Assembly: GCF_025526975.1 (NCBI RefSeq)
Contig: NW_026515671.1
Location: forward strand, 1,550,001-1,614,000
Length of the DNA stretch: 64,000 nucleotides
Source of the DNA: Fimicolochytrium jonesii
Taxonomy: Eukaryota
Direction: 5' to 3'
In this document: piece after piece, positions 30,856 to 45,781 of the stretch
How the letters are laid out: every line of letters starts with the position of its first letter
Numbering within the stretch: the stretch's first letter is position 1
Made by a program: the position numbers and the translations under genes
Notes under the pieces: generated by a model
The model's database searches: none
What the model was told of the DNA's origin: nothing
The model's input: the letters and a program-made list of their open reading frames with translations, nothing else

Positions 30856-32657
30856 TCATCCCTTACGCCGTGCCCTCGTCCCCCGCGCGGATGAACCTAC
30901 TTCCGCCGCTACAACTTCTTTCTCAGATTTTGCCCGCCGCGATTTGGCAGCTGGCCCTTCCTCCTTCACACCCTCAACCTTCCGTATGCGTCCACGTGAA
31001 GTTGCATCCTTCTTCGCCGGCTCAGCATCGTCTACTGGTTCCACTTTGATGCTCAGCTTTCGTTTTGAGCGTCGTAGTTTTGGGCCGTCTTCCTCCTCAT
31101 TGCCGTCGTCGGCGGCGCTGTCCGAAGGTGGGTCGGCTTGAGCGTCTTCGCTTTTGGCTTTGCGTTTTTTCGTTGTCCGTGATTTGATGGGAGGTGGGGA
31201 GTTTGGGGACGGATCGTCGTCAGCGTCCTCGCGTGTGGGTTTGCGTTTTTTCGTCCGTGATGGTTTGACGGGAGCTGAGGAATCGGGTGACGCCGGTTCG
31301 GATTTCTCGACTTTTGATTTCGACTGTGGTGATAGTGCGACACGCGGATGGGATAAGTCGCCAGTCTCGTGCCGGACGTCCAAAGTCCGAAGTGAGAGAG
31401 AAATACCTTTCGGCCTCCGGCGCCTGCGTCTCCGTGGACCTTTTGCACGGCAGGTACGATGGCCGACGTCCGTCCACCCACTGTTTCGAATCTGACGATG
31501 CTGCCGTCGGGTAGCGTCGCTTCACGCGCTTTCGTTGCCCCTTTTCCCCACCTGCATTATTGCGAGGGGGGCCACCGTAAGTGACAAGCCCAATGGTTTT
31601 CCCGTCCATGCCGGCGCGATTTAACCCCCTCACCGATGCTTGAATATCCAATTATCCGGAAACCGGCTGCTATCCGCATTCACCTCAACAGCCGTCTTGA
31701 CCACAAAGGCCATCTGCTCATACAGCGCCGCGATCTCGGCTTCCGTCAACGTGTTGGTGTATTGCGCGGGATGGATGCGGGCTTGGTAAAGGATCTGCAT
31801 GGCTCGTCACGTCGCCGTTCATGAACGCATGTCCATCACTACGCTTGGATCCCGTAGACGCACCTCATCAGCAACCCAGTTGCCCACTCCAGCACTAAAC
31901 GACTGATTCAATATCAACGCCTTCACCGGAACCTTCCGCCCCTTCACCAACCCACTGAACACGTCAAGAGCAGGCATCTCCAAATACGGATCGAAACCCA
32001 ATTCCGAGACGGGCGGGAAATCATGTGGGTCCCCATCGACGAGCCGAATCCGCGCGAGTCGCCGCGGGTCGGTGAAGGCGAGCTCTTCACCGGTGGAGAA
32101 GACGAGCACGAATTTGTGGAATTTGGGCGGCCAGGTTGAGGAGGATGTGGAGAAGTCTTCGTAGTGGAGGCCCGGTTGGCCTTTTATCTGATATGTGGAG
32201 GCGGAGGGGGTGGGTATGAATTTCTGCAACATAGGACAGGATTAAGGCGGAGAGGGGCATACCCTGACGGATCCGGTCATGCCCAAGTGCAACACGGCAT
32301 TGGGCACTTTGTCAAAGATGAACCAGAACACTTTGCCTTTCCGGCCCGTATCCTTTACCGTCTGTCCTTTCAGCTTTTCGGCGAACTCGGTGTTGCTGCA
32401 GCCATTATATACGATATCATCTACAGTCTGGGAAAGCAAGGGTGGCAGGTGGGGTGAATGTTCGTACGCCGTCACACTATTATGATTGCGAGGCACTCCA
32501 ATACCAAAGTGCCGAGTTGACACGAAGCGGATGGGTGGAGCTGAGCGAATGAGTTGTGGAGAGCAAGCCTTACCGTGTCGACCCGGACAATCTTCTTGTT
32601 CAGGAGGTTATCGTGGACCAGTCGCCTGGCTCGTTCGACCTCTGGGAGTTCCGGCAT
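30856..32657 (-). CDS. fpg: Formamidopyrimidine-DNA glycosylase (Fpg/MutM, fungal/plant type), multi-exon
   Basis: N-terminal MPELPEVE, RKGK, HLGMTG, WPPKFHKF, FTDPRRLARIRL, AGVGNWVADE, VGGRTSAIVPAVQK. Confidence 0.92.
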
Positions 32658-32810
32658 TTTCTGACGATGAGAGGTCAGACCGTACTACGAGGGCGTGATG
32701 CAGCGAAGGGTCACTCACTAGCTACAAGTCCCAAAAGCTGACACAGTTGCGAGTCAATATATAGTAGGTACAATGGAATGCGCGTGAGCGCGATGTGTGT
32801 GAGTCACACT

Positions 32811-32875
32811 GCGTTACTATAAGCGTTACTGGTCTTGCGTTACTGGCCTTCACAGTACACGCTTCCCATAGTACA
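32811..32875. repeat. Left-end cluster of GCGTTACT(GG) repeats (32811, 32823, 32837) plus ATAGTACA (32868-32875)
   Basis: Seen directly; the same motifs recur at 44821-44883. Confidence 0.75.
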
Positions 32876-33181
32876 CCACATATGATCCCATATGAATGGA
32901 CGCGTCAATGCGCGCAATTTAACAGAGAATTCGATTTTGATGATAACACTTAACAATTGATTAGGGGAATCGATTTTTCATTTTTTATGGCAACAGATTT
33001 GCCTCATGATTAGCTTCCACACACTCCCCCAATTAAAGGATGTCATATATAAGACAGCCTGCTGACGCTTCCCCTCACGTTTTCCCTATGCTTTCCACAG
33101 CACTTTTACGCCATCTTCAACACATCGCACACACATCACACCGTCTCTCCTCTCTCCTTTGCAACGCCACGCACTGTAAGT

Positions 33182-33252
33182 AAGCTGAGGATTATTGTGT
33201 TTTTGAACCAGAAGGGCTGGAAAGCGTCGAAAAACGGCGTTATTCTCAGCCT
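33182..33252. repeat. 71-bp palindromic motif, copy 1 (in probable 5'-UTR intron 33176-33305)
   Basis: AAGCTGAGGATTATTGTGTTTTTG...CGAAAAACGGCGTTATTCTCAGCCT. Confidence 0.9.
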
Positions 33253-33341
33253 GTCGGAGTTTCGACAGCTTGACTGACGTGACTGACGTTTGTTCGAAAG
33301 TTTAGGTATACCAACACACCCTGCCCTCATCATAAGTGAGT

Positions 33342-34248
33342 ATGGCTTCTTCTTCTTCGGCAACGGGACGGGGACCCAACGACAACGGGGAGGGGGATAT
33401 GGGGATGGCCATGTACGACCTGTCAGAAATGCACTGGCAGATGGGGCAGGAGGAGACGGAGACGACGATTGCCGTCTTCTGTTACCTCTGGATCCTCTAC
33501 GACCCAGTGATCGTTACCCGCATGGTCGATGGCCACCAGGTCGAGTTTTACTGGTGGTCACTCAACCAATCGAGGCACATCAGGACGCTGCAGAGGCGTG
33601 CCCGCTCGGCGGCGGCCTTCGGCCTCTGTCGAGTGGATTCAGAGGCGCGCCTCTACCACGAGGGGAAGCAAGTCAACGGGGTGATGCTGAGGAAGGATTG
33701 GGTCGGGGGTACGTATCTTCTCGACAAGCTGAGGATTAATGCGTTTTTCGACGTCCCCGGCGTGCGCGCGTCAAAAAATCGCATAAACCTCAGCTTGTCT
33801 TTGTTTTGTTGCTGCGTTGAAGGGCAATAACAATAACCGTGTTCTTCTCTCAGATTGCTTGAGGATCCACCCATTGGACGCAGAGAGGCTCAGGGATTGA
33901 ATGTTGCCAGCATGGGACAACACCGCACTATGCCCCCTTGGCCATCTCTGCAAAGGCGCCTCCGTCGCACACAGCATCCATCAGACATGGGATGCTCCCA
34001 TCTTTCCGCCACCGCCAATCGGCCCAACCGCAACCGCCGCAGCCACTGCCCCCTCCCCAGGCGACTACTCCCAGCCATGGTTGTCCTTCCAGGACACAGT
34101 TGTTGAGGGAATGCGTAACCCTTCGTCCGAGGTTATCGATGAGGCTGAGGACATCTTCGAAAATACGGAGCAGATGAAGGAATGGCGGAAGCAAATGGCT
34201 GAATACTATAGCCGGAAGAGGACCAAGGATGCTGAAGCCGATGAATAA
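33342..34248 (+). pseudogene. Crypton cargo gene 1, unknown protein of about 253 aa; exons 33342-33708 and 33854-34248; in-frame TGA at 33898-33900
   Basis: Phase-1 intron GTACGT..TCTCAG joins the two ORFs in frame; no family recognised. Confidence 0.6.
33726..33796. repeat. 71-bp palindromic motif, copy 2 (in intron 33709-33853)
   Basis: AAGCTGAGGATTAATGCGTTTTTCGACG..CGTCAAAAAATCGCATAAACCTCAGCTT. Confidence 0.95.
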
Positions 34249-34480
34249 TATGTTCCATATCATACCATTTCTGAATATATTCTGATTGTTGGCCTCTTCT
34301 TTCCTTTTCTCAATTAACATCAGAATATGGTCAACCCATGACCCCCTGCCCCGCCCGGTTCTGCCAGGAAACTGGCCTTGGATGCTCCACGCGGTCTTCC
34401 AAATCGCCCAAATCGCCCTGCATTAATTCCCCAATCTAGAATTGATAATGTCACAGGAACTTGGAAGGTGGGTTTTGAAC

Positions 34481-34551
34481 AAGCTGAGAGAACCTTGATT
34501 TTCGCCGTCCCCGGTCTGGAGAGGGTTCAAAATGGCACTAATCTTCAGCTT
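34481..34551. repeat. 71-bp palindromic motif, copy 3 (in intron 34468-34561)
   Basis: AAGCTGAGAGAACCTTGATTTTCG..TTCAAAATGGCACTAATCTTCAGCTT. Confidence 0.9.
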
Positions 34552-34963
34552 GGTACGTCAGGTTGGTTATCCACCAAAGTCCACGTTCCCAAAGGCGCTG
34601 ACTCTGCGACGAAGAAGGGGCGGATATCGGTCGGGCGAGTTGGCAGAGGCCGAGATCAAACACTATGCCCATACATATGGGTCGGTGATCCTAAAGTCGC
34701 CCTTCAGGAAGTTGATAGAGGAGATCGACTATGAAGTGCCCCGGGCTCACAATCAGAGCATCGCGACAACCCCGGGGGCGACGCCGTTCTCTGAAAGGCA
34801 TCGCTGGTACCAAGAGGCAGTCGATGCCCTCCAGGAGGCCGCTGAGACATACATCAGCGCCCTCTTCTCAAACTCCATCATGCAACAACGGCATGCAAAG
34901 CGTCGGACTCTGAACAAGGACGACGTGAGTACTTGTTTGTCATTCAACGCATTCCAGTTACCC

Positions 34964-35034
34964 AAGCTGAAGATAACGCCGCTTTTGACGTCTCTGGGGA
35001 GGGGGACGTTCAAAAAGCGGATAATTGTCAGCTT
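34964..35034. repeat. 71-bp palindromic motif, copy 4 (in intron 34925-35076)
   Basis: AAGCTGAAGATAACGCCGCTTTTGACG..CGTTCAAAAAGCGGATAATTGTCAGCTT. Confidence 0.9.
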
Positions 35035-35109
35035 GGCTTGTATTCCACACTGATTGATTCTCTTTTTGACAAATAGTTTCGGATGGTCCGGTACTTCCGG
35101 AAGCTGCTG

Positions 35110-35639
35110 TGTTATGAATGGGCGGAGCCGATGGAAATAGAGGCGACTTGTGGTGCAGGTTGTTGACAGGTAATGGTATTCAGACCGAAACAAGAACTAG
35201 AACAAGACTAGGAAGAACTGGTGTTGATCTGCTGGGGGATCAGGAAGTGGGGAGCTCAGGGGAGGCGGCTATTTATGTTTTTCTGGGAAGGCTGGGGAAG
35301 CGTGGGGAAGCAGAAGGGTACGGAATGAGAGGGAAGCCAAGAGAAGCGCCAAGGGTGGGGAAGCATAGAAACAGAAGACTGGGGATGGGGTGGCTACGCT
35401 GAGGCTGTGGGCGGGTACGTGGGGAAGTATGGAGAAGGGTTTGTAAGCGCCGAGTGTTGGGAGGTGTGGCTACGTGCGGCTGCGTGGAGAATTGAAGGCA
35501 GTGGCAGGTGTGGGGTAGCGCCGCTGCGTGCGGCTGCAAGGTTTGGCAGATGTCAGGTTTTGACAGGGAATTGACATTGACTGACTGTTGGGATGCTGTC
35601 ATGAGGTAAGCGCATGGTATGGACGCGTCGTCCATAACA
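35110..35639 (-). repeat. 3' LTR, 530 bp
   Basis: Begins TGTTATG and ends CATAACA; about 6 substitutions relative to the other LTR. Confidence 0.97.
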
Positions 35640-35651
35640 TCACCCCCTCCT

Positions 35652-38600
35652 TTAGCCACGGCGTCCGGATGTTGTTTTGATGTTGGCAGGCTTTGGTCGG
35701 GGTTTGTCGGGGTACTTTTGGTGGAACTGGGCAACAAGCTCTTGACATCGGGCAAGGTGTTCCACTGGCTCCCATGTGTTCTCCGAGCTTGGCCAACCCT
35801 GCCACTTGATGAGGTACTGAAGGTGCGTGCGTCGAATACGGGAGTCAAGAATGTCTTCCACAATCCATTCCTCCTGTCCTTCGACTTCTTCTGGTGGGGT
35901 GGGTTCTGGCTCAGTTCGCTCCGGAATGGTGAAACGTGGTTCAAGAAGGGAGACATGGAAGACGTTGTGAATTTTGTAGGATGGGGGAAGCTTGAGGCGA
36001 TATGTGACCGAGTTGATCTTCTCCGTGATTGTGAAGGGGCCAATCTTACGGTGATCAAGTTTCTGGGAAGGTCGGAGAGTCTTGAGATTCCGCTGTAAGA
36101 GCCAGACACTGTCCCCGGGTTTCATGTCTGGGCCAGGTGCCCTCTTAGCATCGGCAAAGCGCTTCATGCGTCCTTGGGCCTCCTTGAGCTCAGTGGCAAG
36201 CTGTTCATGGATTTCCTTGAGATGGTTGGCACGAGCTTCGGCTGCAGGATTAAGGGATTCGGTTGTGGTGGCGGAAGCCAGACTGAATCGAGGATGGAAC
36301 CCATAGTTGGCGTAGAAGGGGGTTGTCTGGGTGGCGGAGTGGATGGTGTTATTGTAAGAGAACTCAGCAGAAGACAAGAGTTCCTTCCAGTTATCTTGTT
36401 GATAGTTGCAAAAGCAGCGAAGGTATTGCTCAAGAATCTGATTGGTCCGCTCGGTTTGTCCATCGCTCTGGGGATGGAACGCCGATGAGAGGTTGACCTT
36501 GGTTCCCAGGAGAGCGAAGAGACGTTTCCAGAAGTGGGAGTTGAACTGTGGGCCACGGTCAGATACAATATCGTCGGGGAGTCCATGGAGCCGGATGACA
36601 TGGTGCCAGATCAGATCTGCAGTTGACTCAGCGGTGGCAGTTTTCCTGCACGGTACAAAGTGCGCCATCTTGGTGAACCGGCAGATGACAACGAGCACAG
36701 AATCAACCCCATCACTGGCGGGTAGATCCGTGATGAAGTCCATAGGAAATTGACCCCCAGGGGCGGTCAGGGACCTGCAGGGGTTGGAGGAGTACCGTAG
36801 GGCTTGTGTCTGCTGGTCTTGGCTTGAGCACATACGTCGCAGGACCTGATGTAGGACTTGACAAAACGCCACTGGCTAGGCCACCAGTAGTTGCGTGAGA
36901 TGAGCTCCAGGGTCTTTGACATGCCGTAGTGTCCTGCCAAACGCGTGTCATGCATGTCCCGGCAGATCTCAGCACGGAGCTTGTTGGTGGGGACGTAGAC
37001 AAGGTTGTCGTACAGCAGAACCCCATTTTCCTCGGAGAATCGCTTTATCCGTTCTTGGTCTTCTTGAGATTGCTGGGCAATGGGGGCCCTAAGCTGTCGC
37101 CGGATGGTTTCGCGCAAACACATCGGATGCCAGGGCAGCTTTGATTTGGTCAAGGAGCGAGGAGTCCAGTGGGGTCAGATAAGTGGCGGCCAGGCGGAGA
37201 TGGTCAGGGGTGAGGATCGTGGTTTCCTGGGAGCGGAATGCTTCTTCCCCCTCCCTTAGCTCGTATTCAGAGCGACGAGAGAGGGCGTCAGCTTGGTGTT
37301 GCTGGGTACCAGGGCGGTATGTGATGACAAAGTCGAAATCAGCAAAGAAGATTGACCAGCGGGATTGGCGGCGGTTGAGGGTACGGGTAGTCATTAACTG
37401 GAGGTTCTTGTGGTCACAGTAAATGATGACCTTGTGGCGGGCACCAATGAGGTGGTGTCGCCATTGAGCAAATGAGTCTTGGATAGCCAGGAGTTCCTTG
37501 TCGTAGATCTCATAGTTGATTTCCTCAGGAGTAAATTTGCGGGAGTGAAAGGCCACAGGGTGGAGTTGATCTGTGTCATCGGGTTGAAGGAGGACGGCGC
37601 CAAGGGCAAAGTCGGAGGCATCGGATTCGACAATGAAGGGCTTGTCAGGGTCGGGGTGAGTCAGGATAGGTGCGGAGGTGAAGGCTTTCTTGAGGGTTTC
37701 AAAAGCTAGGTGTGCAGCGTGGGTCCATTTGAATGGCAAGTCTTTGCGAGTGAGCGTGGTCAGGGGTGCAACGATCGCAGAGTACCCTTTGATGAATCGC
37801 CGGTAGAAGTTGGCAAAACCAAGGAAGCGCTGGATGCCTTTGACATTCGTCCGGGGTTCCCATTCGGTAATGGCAGCCGTCTTCTTTGGGTCCATGGAAA
37901 TGCCTTGCTGGGAGATGATAAACCCCAGGAACTCAACAGAGTCACGGTTGAATTCGCATTTTTCCGGTTTCGCATACAGCCCGTGCTGGCGGAGTCGTGA
38001 GAGCACCTCTCGGACGTGGTTGGGGTGGTCTTCTGGGTTTTTTGAGAAGATCAGAATGTCGTCAAGGTAGACCACAACAAAAACGTCGAGAATGTCACGG
38101 AATATGTCGTTCATGAGGTGTTGGAATACTCCAGGGGCATTGGTGAGCCCAAACGGCATGACATTATACTCGAATAGGCCGTAGCGACATTGGAACGCTG
38201 TCTTCCATTCATCCCCTGGCCGGATCCGAAGAAGGTTGTAGGCTCCCCGGAGGTCAATCTTGGTGAGCCGGCGTGCCCCTCGAAGACGATCCATGATGCT
38301 GTTAATCAAGGGCAAGGGATAGCGATTCTTGATGTTGATATTGTTGAGTCCACGATAGTCGACGCACAGACGGAGGGAACCGTCCTTTTTCTTGACAAAG
38401 AGGACTGGGGCACCGGCGGGAGACTTGGAGTGCTTGATGAACCCCTTAGCTAGGTTCTCTTCAAGGTAGTCACAGAGTGCCTGCATTTCAGGCTTGCTGA
38501 GACTATAGATCGGGCCGAACGGTGGCTGTTTGCCCTCTTCTAAGTCGATGGGACAGTCGTAGGGTCGGTGCTCTGGGAGGGTATCCGCGTTCTTCTTGGC

Positions 38601-39321
38601 AAAGACGTCCGCAAAATCTTGGTATTCTTCAGGAATGATGGCCTTCGGATCTTTTGGAGGAGTGGTCGCCAGGGCTTGGGAATCTGACTTGGTCGGATTG
38701 GCGTAGGCAATGAAAGCCTGGTCATGCCTTGCCGCCACACGGAAAGCCTGGGGCGCTGATAAACGATACGTGGATCGGTGTGGGTGCTGGGTCCAGTGTG
38801 TTGGGTGTCTGGGCTAGGGAGACTGAAATCTCGTCTTGATGGATACGGATCAGAGGTTCAGGGGTTCTTGAGGGCTTCGGGCTAGGTTCTGTTGGCAGGG
38901 CATCCCAGGAGGCGTATTGTCCAAAACCGCAATGGCAGCGGACGCAAAGAGTGCGAGTCTTCCAGTGTAGCTCCACATCATGGAGCTCAAACCAGGGATG
39001 CCCCAGGATGATTGGCGCATGCGGGGAACATGTCACATGGAATATCACCTCCTCAAAATGGTCGTTGACCCACATGCCCAAAGGTTGGGTGTGATGGGTA
39101 ATGGAGCCCGCATGGCTGGGACGTCCGTCAACCAGTTCAAGCGCAATGGGGTCCTCCTTCTTGACAAGTGGGATGCGGTGCTTGCGGGCATAACTTTTGT
39201 CGATGAAGCACGACATCGCACCGGTGTCGAGTAGTGCTGAAAGCTGAACTGGAGCTCGCTGGGCCGATATCTGCAGGGTAACAGGGTACTCGAATGGTGA
39301 GGATGGGCCCAAAGTCCGCAT
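35652..39321 (-). pseudogene. pol: Gypsy pol (protease-RT-RNase H-integrase-chromodomain) with about 4 single-base frameshifts
   Basis: Domains are spread over ORFs 38722-39321, 37089-38738, 36767-37153, 36712-37026 and 35652-36872. Confidence 0.93.
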
Positions 39322-39479
39322 GGGTGAGGGTATCTCAGATAGGAGATTGACATTGTTGGTGGTCAGGAGAAGGGTGTTGCTGGAGATGCCAGGATCAGAG
39401 CAAGGTTTTGTGGCTTCTCCCTTGGCAGTACTTGCGTGGCGAGAAGGCCCAGGACAGGTGTTGCCCAGCTGCTCGGCCT

Positions 39480-40406
39480 TTACTGCAGCTGGACTTGGGC
39501 AAAATCCTGGATGGGTGCAGGTTCCTTAACCGCGACATTCGCCGTGCGTATCTTGTTCGGGCAGAGTTTGGCTATGTGGCCGGGTTTACCACAGTAGAGG
39601 CAAAGTTTGTTTGTGATGCGGTGTTGGCGCTCTAGCGGTGTGAGGGGTCCTCGCGGACGAGCAGCGTCAATGATCATAGGGTCGTCTGGGCGGTTGTCGG
39701 GGCTCATGAGGGTGGGGCTAGTGGTAACTGGCACATATGGCTGTCGGTTCCTGCTTCGCTCTAGACGGCGCTCAAACAATCGGTTGTCACATTGGATGGC
39801 CTGTTCCATCACGGTGTCAATTGAGGCGGTAGGGGGCATCGTGAGCATTAAGTCCTTGACGTCTTCTTTGAGGCCGCGACGGAAGGTGGCAATCAATGCC
39901 TGGTCATTCCACGACACATCGCATTGCAGCTGTCGGAATTCAGCTACATACTCTGTTGCTGCACGGGTTTGTCGAAGGTTCTGGAGCTTGTTTTCGGATG
40001 TGCGGATCCTGTCGCTGTCTCCAAAGACTGCTTGCATTTGCTGGATGAAATCATCCAGGTTCGTAAGGGAATGATGGTCTTGTTTGACAAGGGGCGCCAG
40101 CCAGGCCTGGGCGGTGCCAGTGAGGTAGGTGCCAATAGGCCGTATCTTGGTCTGATCGTTGGGGTAGCGCCTGGGTTGGAGGGCGAACATGAGCCGGATC
40201 TGGTTGAGGAACCCACGGAACTTGCTTCGGGTGCCATCAAATTTGTCTGGGAAACTGATTTTGGGTTCGGGGGCGTGGGTGGCAGGGGCAGTGGTCTAGG
40301 TTTGTGCTAGTTCGGCTTGTAGGGTGGTATTCTGTGCTCGAAGTTCGTCAATCGCATTGCACATGGCTTGCCAGGCTTCGGCCGTGAGGGGAAGGGCGTC
40401 GGACAT
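39480..40406 (-). pseudogene. gag: Gypsy gag with an in-frame TAG at 40296-40298
   Basis: PKISFPDKFDGTRSKFRGF, LCLYCGKPGHIAKLC zinc knuckle; the ATG at 40406 is in frame with ORF 39480-40190. Confidence 0.9.
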
Positions 40407-40457
40407 GGTGATTTGGCGTGGAGGTACAGCGGCTGGGGGTTGTTGAGCAGATCAAAC

Positions 40458-40987
40458 TGTTATGAATGGGCGGAGCCGATGGAAATAGAGGCGACTTGTG
40501 GTGCAGGTTGTTGACAGGTAATGGTATTCAGACCGAAACAAGAACTAGAACAAGACTAGGAAGAACTGGTGTTGATCTGCTGGGGGATCAGGAAGTGGGG
40601 AGCTCAGGGGAGGCGGCTATTTATGTTTTTCTGGGAAGGCTGGGGAAGCGTGGGGAAGCAGAAGGGTACGGAATGAGAGGGAAGCCAAGAGAAGCGCCAA
40701 GGGTGGGGAAGCATAGAAACAGAAGACTGGGGATGGGGTGGCTACGCTGAGGCTGTGGGCGGGTACGTGGGGAAGTATGGAGAAGGGTTTGTAAGCGCCG
40801 TGTGTTGGGAGGTGTGGCTACGTGCGGCTGCGTGGAGAAATGAAGGCAGTGGCAGGTGTGGGGTAGCGCGGCTGCGTGCGGCTGCGAGGCTTGGCAGATG
40901 TCAGGTTTTGACAGGGAATTGACATTGACTGACTGTTGGGATGCTGTCATGAGGTAAGCGCATGGCATGGACGCGTCGTCCATAACA
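40458..40987 (-). repeat. 5' LTR, 530 bp
   Basis: Direct repeat of 35110-35639. Confidence 0.97.
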
Positions 40988-41483
40988 TGCTGAGTGCTTC
41001 GGAGCGGACCAAATACCGTAAACGTCAACATCTGATGGAATTGAAGAGGACCCAACAGGCGTGGACAAGGTTGTGGTCGTCGTCGTCGTGGCCAAAGCCA
41101 AAGCCAAAAGCCTTGGCGTCGACGTCGAAGCCACTGAAGGCCATAGACCTTACGCTTGCTGAGGACGAAGCCGTGAAGGCAAAGAGGGAACGGGCGCATA
41201 AGAGGGCTGAGGAAAAGAGGGAGGCTGCCAAAGGGGGGAAGAGGAAGGGCAAGGAGATCGATACCGACGATGAACTGTCGGACGAGGTGAGTGGCCAGGA
41301 GAAAGTTTCTCATATCATGATACCAATACTGACTTTCTAGGAGGAGGGCAAACTTGGCGGACGAGAAGACACGCCGGATTTTGGGGAGTACAAGAAGGGG
41401 ATGAATGCTCTCGGAAAAGGAGGGAAGGGGGACGGCAGCGGTGGTGGCGCTCCTTTTCCATACGTGACAGAATGAGAGAGGGT

Positions 41484-41554
41484 AAGCTGAGGTTTATGCT
41501 GTTTTTCGACGTCCCCATTGAGTTCTCACTCAAAAACGCAATAATCCTCAGCTT
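41484..41554. repeat. 71-bp palindromic motif, copy 5 (between the convergent stops of the H3-like and recombinase genes)
   Basis: AAGCTGAGGTTTATGCTGTTTTTCGACG..CTCAAAAACGCAATAATCCTCAGCTT; preceded by GT, so possibly in a 3'-UTR intron. Confidence 0.95.
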
Positions 41555-41723
41555 CCACCATCGAATCTTGTACACCTCGCATAGAGAACATGCTTTCGCA
41601 CGCACGCACGCACGCAATACATAATCTCTCCTTTTTCGCGTTTCCCTTGATATGCCCTACCCTCATGTTTGGTTCCTTAGCTTATAAGTTCTACCAGAAT
41701 GCACAAAGAGCGTACATTGCAAG

Positions 41724-44569
41724 TTATGAGCACCGTTGTTTTTGATTTTCATTCAGGAAATCTTGGTATTCCGCTAGCGTAAGCTGTTTCTGGCATCGCT
41801 CTACCTCCATTGCACGAGCAGCCTCCTTGCCTGTGGTCGCCGTCAGTTGGCAACGTGCCTGTACAGCATCATATATCCTCTTTCGCCGTGTATAATGAGT
41901 CCGCTCAGTTGTGGCCGCCCGCCAGCTGGACCGCCACCCCGCATCCAATGCCCTTACAGACGGCTGCCTCGCCCTGTTCTCATCTACCAAGCCCTTGTCG
42001 TACTCCTCCCAGACTTGGATGACCGTACCAAGCCGGCGACTCATGATGTACTTTGGGATGTCACCAGCCGCTGATGTCGCTGAGGGTGTAGGCGGAGGAG
42101 TAGGCAAATGCTCTTTGGCGAGGGCTTGGGAAGGCACAGACGTGGCGTCTTGTGAGGCCAACAGGCGGGAGAGCAAGGCTGGCTGTGGCCGTTCCGTTGA
42201 CCGCAGTTGTTCCAATGCATTTTGAGCCTTCCTCCAGGATGGCAACATTTGCAAGTCGGTCATCATGCCTTCTATAGATCCCATGAAGTCTTCCACATGA
42301 TCAATGCGCTGACTATGCAAAGCGACGTCGCTACCGACGCCGTTGATGTAAGCAGACACAAGCTGCGAAGCCTTGATGGTCATAGCGATGCCCTCGCGCC
42401 CGCGTGTATCGATATCTGCAAACATATGGATGTCAGAGACGTCGGCGATTGTTAAGACAGGCAAGCTGAGGTTTAAGCTGTCTTTTGACGTCCCCATCGG
42501 GTTCTCGCTCAAAAACGCGATCATCCTCGGCTTGTCACCAACGAAGGCAATGCACGGACTTACTTGCAGTTACTCGGTCCTCTGAATCCATGACTCGTTT
42601 TGTGAGCGCCGCCATCTGGTGCTGTATACCTTCTTCAACCGTTGCCACCTTCGTCAGTATGGAATCGTTAGTTGCTTTGATCGCGACGGCGACATTTGGC
42701 AGCACATGCTCAATAGATGCGATTGTTGGATCTGGTGACGTTTCCTGCGCCGCCTTGAGTTTCGCGTGGTATTCGAGAAAGACAGGGTTGGCGAAGACCG
42801 GATGGAGCCAGATTGGTTTGCTGGAAAATGCGATTGAAGTAATGCGGAATCTTGTAGTAGGCTTTTGCGTAACTTGACTAGCAGGGTTGCCACGTTCTTG
42901 CTGGCAATGCAAGGCAGTGTGCGCTCCTTTCGATCGTGGGCATCGAGTGCTTCTTTAGCCCACGGGAAGATCTGGTCAACTAGTTCCTGTGGCCGTTCGA
43001 CTTCCCTTGGCAGAAAATACCCGCCTTCATTTGCAGGCCACTCGCCGATGGCCCGCATCACTTCTTTGGGGACATCCGTGTCATACCCGAGCCAAAATGC
43101 ACTACGACTCCAACCTCCCATATTGGTGATCGCGTTTACGTCCGCTCCGTTGCCTCTGGCTTCCTTACTACCGGTACCGCGGGTTAAGTGGGTGACCTTG
43201 GAAGCGTGAATCCCGACTGCCGCGAAGGCTGCTTTGAACATCTTGTTGTGCGGTTGGTATGTAAAGCGATTGGGATTATTTCGCAGGCCCCCATCTTCAT
43301 CGTCCGACGAGAGAACCTTGCGCGTTCGTTTCCTTCCAGTTTTGGTGATATCCTTTTTCATAAAGTACGTGTTGTACCACGATGCCTTGTCAAACAGATC
43401 CGGTGGAGTTTCCTAAGAGTTTCCAGAAGTAGAAACAAGCTGAGGATAACCTCGGTTTTGGGCGTCCCACAACGGGGCACGTCCAAAAACGCACTAATCC
43501 TCAGCTTGTCCACCTCAAGAAAAAGGTCAACAAGCAACATGCAACATGTTCCTTACCGTGCTTATATGCCATCTGTAGAAGAGATACACTGCAACATGCG
43601 CTATAGCGCAGAATATAACATTCTTTGCCCGCATGAAACCGACAGTTTCCAATCGCCCAAATTGATTTGTTTTCCCATGCCGCGATGTGAGCTCGACGCC
43701 CCATGCTGGCGTGGGTCCTTCATTACCATCCAACGGCAGAAAGGCGAAACAGGAGAGTTGTAAACCGCGCATGATTTGGCCTCGCTGAAGGGTGGCGTGT
43801 TGGATCAAAAAGGATGTGTAGTTCCGGAGCCCGGACTCTGGAGTTTGCTGCAAAAAAGGGATCCTGAATTAGAAGAGGCCAAGCTGAGGTTAATGCGGTT
43901 TTTCGACGCGCGCACGCCGGAGACGTCGAAAAATGCACTAATCCTCAGCTTCCCAACGATCAACCATTCACGCACCTGCGTCCACCAATGCTTTGCTAGA
44001 TTCAACTGGTCCTTGTTGTCGTAAGAATCACCTGTACTCCCGATCCCTCGATCTTTCAACGCTTTATAATCGCTGTTATACTGATCCCTACTCTGAGTTT
44101 TCAGCATCTCCTTTATTGTGGTCATTCGAGGATAATTGGGTTTGATGTTCTCGCCCAATGCTTGCTGGGAATCGGACAAGTCCGTCACGGCCTTGACGTA
44201 CTGGTCCAACGTAGCCCGTGACATGGGCTTTGGAGGATTGTAGGGCTGTCCTCTATTGTTTAATGCCCCCCGGGGCTTGACATATTTGTTGAGCCACAGA
44301 AGAACTTTGCCTGGCGTGACCTTTTGCGAGCGCCTGTTGGTGTCGCACCATGCCAGATACAACCTCGCACGGTGGCCATATGTGTTGTTAGTCTCAACCG
44401 GTCTCGCTCGTTGGTCCTTTTCCATTTGTTTAATGGTGCTTTGGTGAACTTCCGCATCCTGCACGTCTTCCAAGTCCTCCACTATGCTATCGTCGTCCCT
44501 CGGGGCGTCACCATCGTCCAGACCAGCTGCAGCGGTGGCCTCTGTGGTGGCTGTAGGGGTCGCAGCCAT
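41724..44569 (-). CDS. Crypton tyrosine recombinase (Ndc10-like YR plus C-terminal GCR1_C), about 808 aa; exons 44569-43976, 43847-43557, 43412-42564, 42415-41724; one apparent 1-nt frameshift near 42820
   Basis: Candidate catalytic residues: R (HATLQRG), K (GKTNQFGR), HxxR (KVTHLTR), GGW, Y (FWLGY). Crypton-like motifs GYFLPRE, QIFPW, LLQDSA..PIWLHPVF. GCR1_C-like YIMSRRLGTVIQVWEEY..PSVRALD..W...WR..YTRRKRIYD. All three introns are phase-consistent. Confidence 0.92.
42463..42533. repeat. 71-bp palindromic motif, copy 6 (in recombinase intron 3, 42416-42563)
   Basis: AAGCTGAGGTTTAAGCTGTCTTTTGACG..CTCAAAAACGCGATCATCCTCGGCTT. Confidence 0.95.
43437..43507. repeat. 71-bp palindromic motif, copy 7 (in recombinase intron 2, 43413-43556)
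   Basis: AAGCTGAGGATAACCTCGGTTTTGGGCG..CGTCCAAAAACGCACTAATCCTCAGCTT. Confidence 0.95.
43881..43951. repeat. 71-bp palindromic motif, copy 8 (in recombinase intron 1, 43848-43975)
   Basis: AAGCTGAGGTTAATGCGGTTTTTCGACG..CGTCGAAAAATGCACTAATCCTCAGCTT. Confidence 0.95.
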
Positions 44570-44591
44570 GTCGTTGCCGTCCAGTGTGTCC

Positions 44592-44662
44592 AAGCTGAGA
44601 ATTATGCTAATTTTCAACGTCGCTTTGGACTTCTCGCCCAAAAACGCAATAACCCTCAGCTG
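44592..44662. repeat. 71-bp palindromic motif, copy 9 (just upstream of the recombinase ATG)
   Basis: AAGCTGAGAATTATGCTAATTTTCAACG..CCCAAAAACGCAATAACCCTCAGCTG. Confidence 0.9.
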
Positions 44663-44820
44663 TACGAACAAATGCCGTCACCCGGCCTATGGTCACACGC
44701 ATAACTAATCATTTCCATTGTACCCATGTATGGCAGAAATGCCCCATTGAGGGCATTTCCGTTTTCTATTAGTGCCGTACATAGTCATTTCCCAAGATAC
44801 ATAGGGGGGTCACGTGACTC

Positions 44821-44883
44821 GCGTTACTGGTCTAGTTCTGAGTAACGTGAACGCGTTACAGGCGTCACTGACCCGATAGTACA
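44821..44883. repeat. Right-end cluster: GCGTTACTGGTCT (44821), inverted AGTAACG (44841), GCGTTACAGG (44853), ATAGTACA (44876)
   Basis: Matches the left-end motifs; the 13-bp GCGTTACTGGTCT is identical at 32823 and 44821. Confidence 0.75.
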
Positions 44884-45781
44884 TGTATGTACGCGTCTTG
44901 TCCGAACTTAGAGCATCCCCTTCCTCCCACCGTTTCCCTCTTCGTAACTGACAGTCCAGATGTCTGGTCTAGCACTATCCACGCTTCCTTTATGGCATGC
45001 ATTTCTGCAAACATGCACTCGAAGTGTTTTCATTTAGTGTTTTTGTAGGTTTTGTCAGAGAAGTTCCTTAAGGGGGATGGACAAACTGGCGAGCTGTGGG
45101 CGTCTCCAGAAAGATGAGGGAGAATGCAGTGAGCCGGGGGGAGGTTGGCTGGCCACCAATCTTATGTTGAACTTTCGTCTAACAATGCGAGCTTTCTTTT
45201 CCGAGTTTCCGAGTGCGTTAATCTTTTTGACGGGCTGGATCTGGATAGGGATCTGCTATTTGTATGACTTCCTGGAACGGGATGCTTGCATATGCTCGAA
45301 TGGGGTGTGCAGTGCGCAACTTTGCGATTCCATTCAACAATCCCCTGAACTTTTCGATATGTTTGCGTTGCGTTCATACGTCCCTGCATACGTCCCGTCG
45401 TGCATGCCATCACGGACTCTTTATAATTAAGAGCGGTGGCCGACGCGTAGAAAGAAACAAGCGTCACCTCAATGTTACCGTTCCCTTATCCACCCCGCTG
45501 GCGGTAGAAGGTGGCCTATTTAGAAGCAGTGCTCCGTAAGGCCAGCGCAAGCATTGAATGTATGGCGTTGCTTCCCCCTGTGGTTCCCCTATTCGATACC
45601 TTCCTTGTCGGAAAGCGCCTGAGAAAGCCACACTTGTGCCTTATCCAACCCTACTTGACGAAACCTCTCAGTTGCAGACAGGCATCAGACTTGGAGGTCC
45701 ATATAGCTGTCGGAGGTGATCCTCGCCAGAACGGAGAGTTACGGTCGATAAACCAGAAGCCGACGGCCTCGCGCCCAGAAA

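Follow-up and report, generated by a model that had tools for sequence, protein, structure and literature searches.

A decayed CryptonF-type element of Fimicolochytrium jonesii carries a divergent histone H3 gene and nine 71-bp sites that may position nucleosomes

Introduction

What is a histone gene doing inside a transposon? The question is raised by a Crypton-like unit in a 64,000-nucleotide stretch of the Fimicolochytrium jonesii genome (assembly GCF_025526975.1, contig NW_026515671.1, positions 1,550,001 to 1,614,000 of the forward strand), which we call the window and to which all coordinates refer. A preliminary description of the window had suggested that this element builds specialised nucleosomes on sites of its own, either as a mini-centromere for an excised circle or as a means of evading host silencing. 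Our analysis indicates that the element is real and unusual; judged from sequence, self-made chromatin is likely, the mechanism set out below is plausible, and the centromere claim is unsupported. The full reading that we favour, and to which we give nearly even chances, is that of a decayed, multi-copy CryptonF-type element whose 71-bp sites would position nucleosomes or H3-H4 tetramers made of its own histone and host H4, probably denying the host its silencing marks.

Results

A mobile unit with three genes and nine palindromes

After removal of a nested Gypsy retrotransposon, the unit measures 6238 bp and holds everything that the preliminary description had listed: a tyrosine recombinase, a divergent H3 gene, an orphan gene and nine palindromes of fixed length. 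That description had not recorded that eight of the nine sites lie within predicted introns, that the Gypsy element sits within the H3-like gene, or that all three genes are damaged. All introns are predictions from GT-AG boundaries and frame continuity, the two in untranslated regions (UTRs) being the weakest. The element and its genes are as follows.

32761..44881, no strand assigned: complete CryptonF-type element, 6238 bp once the nested Gypsy is removed, with its exact ends provisional
33342..34248, + strand: orphan gene, predicted exons 33342-33708 and 33854-34248, 253 codons
34327..41475, + strand: H3-like gene, predicted exons 34327-34467, 34562-34924, 35077-35109, 40993-41286 and 41341-41475, 321 codons, start codon uncertain
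34562..34924, + strand: histone-fold exon of the H3-like gene, 34 of 83 aligned residues as in canonical H3
41724..44569, - strand: CryptonF tyrosine recombinase gene, predicted exons 44569-43976, 43847-43557, 43412-42564 and 42415-41724, about 808 amino acids

The sites have the span and phase of tetramer-bound DNA

The nine sites, none of which is assigned a strand, are located as follows.

33182..33252: site 1, inside the orphan gene's predicted 5′ UTR intron, 33176-33305
33726..33796: site 2, inside predicted intron 33709-33853; matches inverted site 8 at 91-93% identity
34481..34551: site 3, the weakest, in predicted intron 34468-34561
34964..35034: site 4, inside predicted intron 34925-35076; seen again in a second histone gene copy (P0151)
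41484..41554: site 5, inside the H3-like gene's predicted 3′ UTR intron, 41482-41584; shares 87% identity with site 6
42463..42533: site 6, in predicted intron 42563-42416
43437..43507: site 7, in predicted intron 43556-43413
43881..43951: site 8, in predicted intron 43975-43848
44592..44662: site 9, located 23 bp upstream of the ATG that opens the recombinase gene, in the 5′ UTR or a possible intron 44681-44551

Each is an imperfect palindrome with arms of 28-29 bp, a centre of ~15 bp and a single central base pair, and 170 of the 261 arm pairs are Watson-Crick. In a leave-one-out profile the nine scored 29-82 bits, and the best other position in 64 kb scored -13. Information falls to background beyond ±36 to 38 bp from the central base pair. 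Within these limits, G/C steps separate the A/T steps found at -35, -26 to -23 and -17 to -13, and the centre is G/C-rich and variable. When window positions were ranked by an untrained phase score with a period of 10.0 bp, all nine centres fell in the top 0-3.5%, and no phase signal was present outside ±37 bp. The observed mean phase exceeded that of column-shuffled palindromes at periods of 10.0, 10.2 and 10.5 bp (p=0.006, 0.011 and 0.044, respectively).

The Widom consensus, obtained by systematic ligand evolution through exponential enrichment (SELEX), has its signal confined to the central 73 bp, with A/T at superhelical locations (SHL) ±1.5, 2.5 and 3.5 and G/C between them (Chua et al. 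2012, PMC3401446, in the accessible portion of the paper). The present sites match it in span and in A/T-G/C phase, and thus appear to fit the DNA that H3-H4 tetramers read. Unlike that selected consensus, they are natural and occur as nine copies in one transposon, have T-runs in place of TTTAA, and carry an invariant AGCTGAG block near SHL ±3 (±28 to 34, with 2.0 bits per position at -33, -32, -30 and -29).

Identity between sites is 71% in the arms and 45% in the centres, with no indels and a fixed length, a pattern that points to a rigid two-fold protein scaffold. Arms of the same site pair less well than arms drawn from different sites (170 vs 180.9 ± 4.9), G-T mismatches are not in excess over A-C mismatches (19 vs 15), and conservation is equal in the two arms (211 vs 204 of 261). 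This lack of covariation indicates DNA half-sites rather than RNA hairpins, and Rfam gave no match at any site. The slight under-complementarity of arms within their own site might reflect selection against hairpin or cruciform formation. Site pairs 2/8 (inverted) and 5/6 are 87-93% identical even in the variable centres, suggesting recent gene conversion between sites.

Two other identities were considered for the sites and rejected. Tyrosine recombinase crossover sites were defined as inverted arms of 11-13 bp around a spacer of 6-8 bp, a geometry that the 28-29-bp arms and ~15-bp centres do not have. Intron-generating mini-transposons show a target-site duplication (TSD), splice sites fixed at their ends and dispersal in host genes; here no TSD was found, the distances to splice sites vary, and the 64 kb scanned held no site in host DNA. 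A site pattern that by eye fits four of the nine sites had no match in viral and metagenome contigs.

The H3-like protein is a long-diverged variant of uncertain affiliation

The H3-like gene has a Pfam Histone match (E 5e-15), and its product was modelled as a histone fold with a predicted local distance difference test score (pLDDT) of 79. At the 83 positions aligned with canonical H3, identity is 41%. A longer loop 1 and loss of Q68, F84 and T107 are diagnostic of the centromeric H3 variant (CenH3), the threonine being numbered 118 in PMC4359364. The H3-like protein shows every such sequence feature: loop 1 is longer by 17 residues (92 of 104 parsed comparison rows have +14 or less), the substitutions Q68R, F84W and T107S are present, and the N-terminal tail is divergent. 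It retains R83, H113, R116, T118 and D123, of which T118 is the threonine position in the alternative numbering. CenH3 ends in a short C-terminus after helix 3, for CENP-C. The present gene encodes helix 3 in the predicted exon that follows the histone-fold exon and is interrupted by the Gypsy, and from there, if splicing is as predicted, the frame continues for ~150 codons. At the other end, the predicted tail exon has two lysines in 42 residues and neither an ARTK nor an ARKS motif (the start of the gene is uncertain). Lacking the contexts of K4, K9 and K27, nucleosomes with this tail could not carry the usual silencing marks.

Cse4 and CENP-A were among the best sequence and fold matches, and H3 and CenH3 matches scored equally. 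In a quick tree (104 of 136 rows and 93 columns of unnamed sequences; 32 unparsed rows and 18 poly-histone, multi-hit or duplicate rows omitted), the element histones formed a clade with short tips on a stem of 3.72 changes per site and had no supported sister. The label 'CenH3-like' used earlier therefore lacks support as a statement of ancestry.

A strong 3′ splice acceptor without a clear donor lies just before the predicted histone start (34249-34323), and the orphan and histone frames might form one transcript or protein. The orphan gene had no Pfam, Atlas, PDB or fold match, and its model reached a pLDDT of 57. A suspected likeness of its product to Scm3 drew no PDB match.

The histone gene is multi-copy and restricted to this species in our searches

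When 5.8 billion proteins were searched, 3 of 46 candidates matched: the window's own protein (on a 1.79-Mb contig) and two others, 93% identical and likewise F. jonesii proteins, whose contigs measure 814 kb and 72 kb. Among 1.84 billion representatives, the 93% match was followed by matches at no more than 48% identity, with no relative at 50-90%. Three copies on three contigs, together with this gap, indicate that the H3-like gene is not a conserved single-copy host gene. A close orthologue in other fungi would be expected for an essential host CenH3, and none was seen among these representatives. An extended homologue search with the histone exon returned 0 of 839 candidates at E<=0.001, which is weak evidence. 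In one of the further copies, P0151, the read-through translation contains site 4 without gaps, showing that this site travels with the histone.

The recombinase identifies a probable CryptonF element

In the recombinase, Pfam matched NDC10_II in two exons (E 2e-14 and 1e-15) and the C-terminal GCR1_C domain (PF12550) in the last exon (E 3e-15), and an Atlas search placed the protein with NDC10_II/integrase clusters. The exon model contains R220, K257, H370/R373, W396 and Y405. R220, H370, R373 and Y405 we take to be catalytic from the motif pattern rather than from an alignment to Cre or Flp. An R-H-R-Y tyrosine recombinase domain and a C-terminal GCR1_C uphold the Crypton identification made earlier; copies of the histone gene lie at three loci, and the 6-bp terminal direct repeat is a candidate. 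The element is probably a CryptonF member that works like other CryptonF elements, and it should not be classed as a CenH3 system. The link to the budding-yeast protein Ndc10 proposed at the outset holds as homology at the family level and goes no further, because the recombinase retains catalytic residues that Ndc10 has lost.

Exon 3 of the recombinase had no PDB sequence match, and an extended homologue search with it returned 0 of 753 candidates at E<=0.001 (weak evidence). With exon 2, 4 of 286 metagenome candidates matched. Two 21-residue matches were set aside, and the two long ones, Crypton contigs of 1.3 and 1.7 kb (L001 and L002) that are 37-40% identical, have no 71-bp sites, a weak control since both are short and distant. 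Among viral contigs, none of 21 and none of 125 candidates matched. The viral and metagenome contigs searched thus held no relative with these features outside the source organism.

The ends and the nested Gypsy element were delimited as follows.

32761..32766, + strand: candidate left 6-bp terminal direct repeat ATAGTA, AT-rich as in CryptonF, not significant alone
32767..32843, + strand: left subterminal motifs, with a 12-mer found inverted at 44713-44724 and GCGTTAC three times (32811, 32823, 32837)
44821..44881, + strand: right subterminal region, with GCGTTAC at 44821 and 44853, a 13-mer common to the left end, and ATAGTA at 44876-44881
35110..40987, - strand: nested chromodomain Gypsy retrotransposon with long terminal repeats (LTRs) and TSD, containing no 71-bp site

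The shared end motifs reported before were recovered. An exact 13-mer (32823/44821) lies within the GCGTTAC clusters of both ends and was equalled in 0.16% of 4864 random pairs of 200-bp windows. These subterminal motifs are likely to be arm-type recombinase sites. With 12 occurrences on the window's + strand, ATAGTA is a candidate terminus only, which leaves the element ends provisional. The 12-bp inverted repeat 32767-32778/44713-44724 connects the left end with a position ~160 bp inside the right end; either a recombinase site or another end of the element might lie there.

Decay, insertion and setting of this copy

Two nonsense codons, one frameshift and one Gypsy insertion affect the three genes, and this copy is therefore dead. 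The orphan frame has an in-frame TGA at 33898-33900 (codon 138), the H3-like gene has a TGA at 34339-34341 (codon 5 of the model) besides the Gypsy interruption, and the recombinase frame shifts near 42820. TGA at both premature stops is as expected from CpG deamination of an arginine codon, and several differences among the three histone copies are likewise compatible with CpG transitions.

The Gypsy element entered the H3-like gene in the exon right after helix 3 of the histone. Its LTRs (35110-35639 and 40458-40987) are 530 bp each with 6 mismatches (1.1%), and its 5-bp TSD, TGCTG, is at 35105-35109 and 40988-40992. Gag, protease, reverse transcriptase, RNase H, integrase and chromodomain were recognised; pol is spread over several frames, and the chromodomain belongs to the integrase.

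The element lies in a gene-dense neighbourhood of housekeeping genes. Its immediate neighbours are divergently oriented host genes for an Fpg glycosylase and a tetratricopeptide repeat protein (Pfam), and no DNA similar to the element occurs elsewhere within the window. At 31130-31291, where the reading frame continues past the Fpg domains into its lysine/arginine-rich 3′ part, we observed an 81-bp tandem duplication (73% identical).

Discussion

How the element could make its own chromatin

We propose that the element histone and host H4 would assemble on the 71-bp sites. With the sites placed in introns, one could recur every 0.44-0.98 kb while coding frames stay intact, and hairpins would be kept from the mRNA. 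Loop 1 is located near the turn of nucleosomal DNA at ±28 to 34, and the AGCTGAG block at these positions is perhaps read base-specifically by the extended loop. The recombinase would excise the element as a circle and reinsert it through the terminal 6-bp repeat and the GCGTTAC arms. The probable purpose, on present evidence, would be shielding from silencing or organising the excised circle. In its most specific form, a private transposon chromatin in which the H3 variant reads its own intron-hidden, Widom-like sites through the extended loop 1, the proposal strikes us as possible but on balance doubtful. What stands of the earlier suggestion of specialised nucleosomes is the agreement of span and phase with the H3-H4 tetramer; the mini-centromere purpose attached to it does not.

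Several observations weigh against self-made chromatin. Phased A-tracts would suit any two-fold symmetric DNA-bending protein. The sites have T-runs instead of TTTAA and no A/T signal at ±5 (SHL ±0.5). Nine of them account for a minority of the nucleosomes on 6.2 kb, and their uneven spacings (444-979 bp with the Gypsy removed) were rejected as multiples of a nucleosome repeat (p=0.84). The histone lacks H3 R63 and R49 and has Q at both C110 and A111. No intact active copy was seen, since private substitutions mark each of its three known copies, and in the public gene model of P0151 the helix-3 intron is left unspliced and translated. The observed/expected CpG ratio is 0.89-0.97 in the element and 1.02 in the flanks; depletion this slight gives no support for pressure from methylation silencing. 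Finally, H3 also travels in other transposons, apparently as passive cargo (PMC6710886, available portion).

Alternative explanations

The strongest competitor, which we nevertheless consider rather unlikely, is that dimers of the recombinase or the orphan protein bind the sites and bend or wrap the DNA for an excision/integration complex or for gene regulation, the histone being separate or idle. The invariant 2.0-bit positions look like sequence-specific readout, GCR1_C is a DNA-binding domain in a protein akin to Ndc10, and the orphan protein belongs to no known family. As a recombinase target, the sites have the wrong geometry, the GCGTTAC repeats at both ends are better arm candidates, and the two distant Crypton contigs do without such sites (with the weakness of that control noted above); the 71-73-bp span and the phase, moreover, match the tetramer footprint. 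We judge it less probable still that a captured CenH3 and the Ndc10-like recombinase form a mini-centromere or an STB-like partition locus for the excised circle. The CenH3 features and the Cse4 and CENP-A matches speak for it, as do the presence of Cse4 at the 2-micron STB without a kinetochore (PMC2064333 and PMC3575823, in the portions available) and the circles demonstrated for Starship elements in the literature available in part. Set against this are the equal scores of H3 and CenH3 matches, the tree without a supported sister, the retained T118, the long extension in place of a CenH3-type C-terminus, the housekeeping setting, the dispersal of sites through genes rather than in one cluster, and Pfam searches of the three genes that yielded no replication protein. 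Dicentric chromosomes would, moreover, be a risk if several integrated copies formed working kinetochores. The proposed mini-centromere role is thus unsupported.

Passive capture of the histone by transduplication, with the sites as functionless leftovers of internal duplication, seems to us quite improbable. It could draw on the capture of H3 by hAT elements in Dothideomycetes (PMC6710886, available portion), on the two site pairs that are alike even in their centres and on the broken state of all genes here; yet the histone-fold exon stayed open and its core residues were retained along a stem of 3.7 changes per site, and the phased, indel-free sites are conserved preferentially in their arms. 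Very improbable, finally, is an RNA-level or intron-level origin, in which the palindromes are hairpins (intronic microRNA-like precursors or splice aids) or tiny intron-creating transposons. A length of ~70 nt and the location of eight of nine in predicted introns would suit either, but hairpins should have left covariation, a G-U excess, unequal arms or an Rfam match, and intron-creating transposons a TSD, fixed distances to splice sites or copies outside the element in the 64 kb.

Implications and known systems

Histones are, to our knowledge, not sequence-specific binders, and we know of few strong natural positioning sequences with SELEX-like symmetry. If the most specific form of the proposal, an H3 variant reading its own sites through loop 1, is true, the element would offer a natural sequence-specific nucleosome. 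A variant histone and nine matched sites in one transposon would make a small testable system for sequence-directed nucleosome assembly. The element bears on how mobile DNA evades chromatin silencing and on the proposed mobile-element origin of point centromeres, and, given its predicted introns, it shows introns serving as parking places for cis-acting DNA sites. In the boldest form, the histone would be CenH3-derived and would tether the excised circle; the element would then illustrate, as a living model, the way in which a Crypton recombinase (the kind from which Ndc10 derives) and sequence-defined H3-variant nucleosomes could have joined at the origin of point centromeres.

The combination was thought at first to be undescribed, and we found no paper on a histone-carrying Crypton or on a transposon with tetramer-sized phased sites in a literature that excluded most subscription journals and Repbase. 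The words 'histone', 'chytrid' and 'palindrome' are absent from the available text of PMC13465315. Transposon-borne H3 as such is already known. The hAT elements of Pyrenophora, Pseudocercospora and relatives (PMC6710886) are likewise fungal DNA transposons that amplify an H3 gene. Their cargo is canonical H3, near-identical or ruined by repeat-induced point mutation, with no dedicated sites reported in the available portion of that paper, whereas the present recombinase element has a variant that diverged long ago, is split by predicted introns of its own and bears a long extension, alongside tetramer-sized sites.

CryptonF elements, as described by Kojima & Jurka (2011) in the accessible part of PMC3212892, share with the present one a tyrosine recombinase with C-terminal GCR1_C, the absence of long terminal repeats, low copy number and AT-rich 6-bp terminal direct repeats, for which we have a candidate. 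They are listed at 1.8-6.0 kb, compared with 6.2 kb here, and their reported extra cargo (a C48 peptidase, a Mariner fusion) does not include a histone; the present element adds an H3 variant, an orphan gene and nine phased sites. According to the same source, Ndc10 derives from a Crypton recombinase and has lost its catalytic site. The closest functional parallels would be the 2-micron STB with Cse4 and CBF3-Ndc10, in which, as we propose here, a recombinase-encoding selfish element is tied to H3-variant chromatin on its own cis sites (literature available in part). The 2-micron plasmid borrows host Cse4, replicates and uses one locus, whereas the present element has its own variant, integrates and has dispersed sites; and unlike Ndc10 in CBF3, its recombinase retains the catalytic residues.

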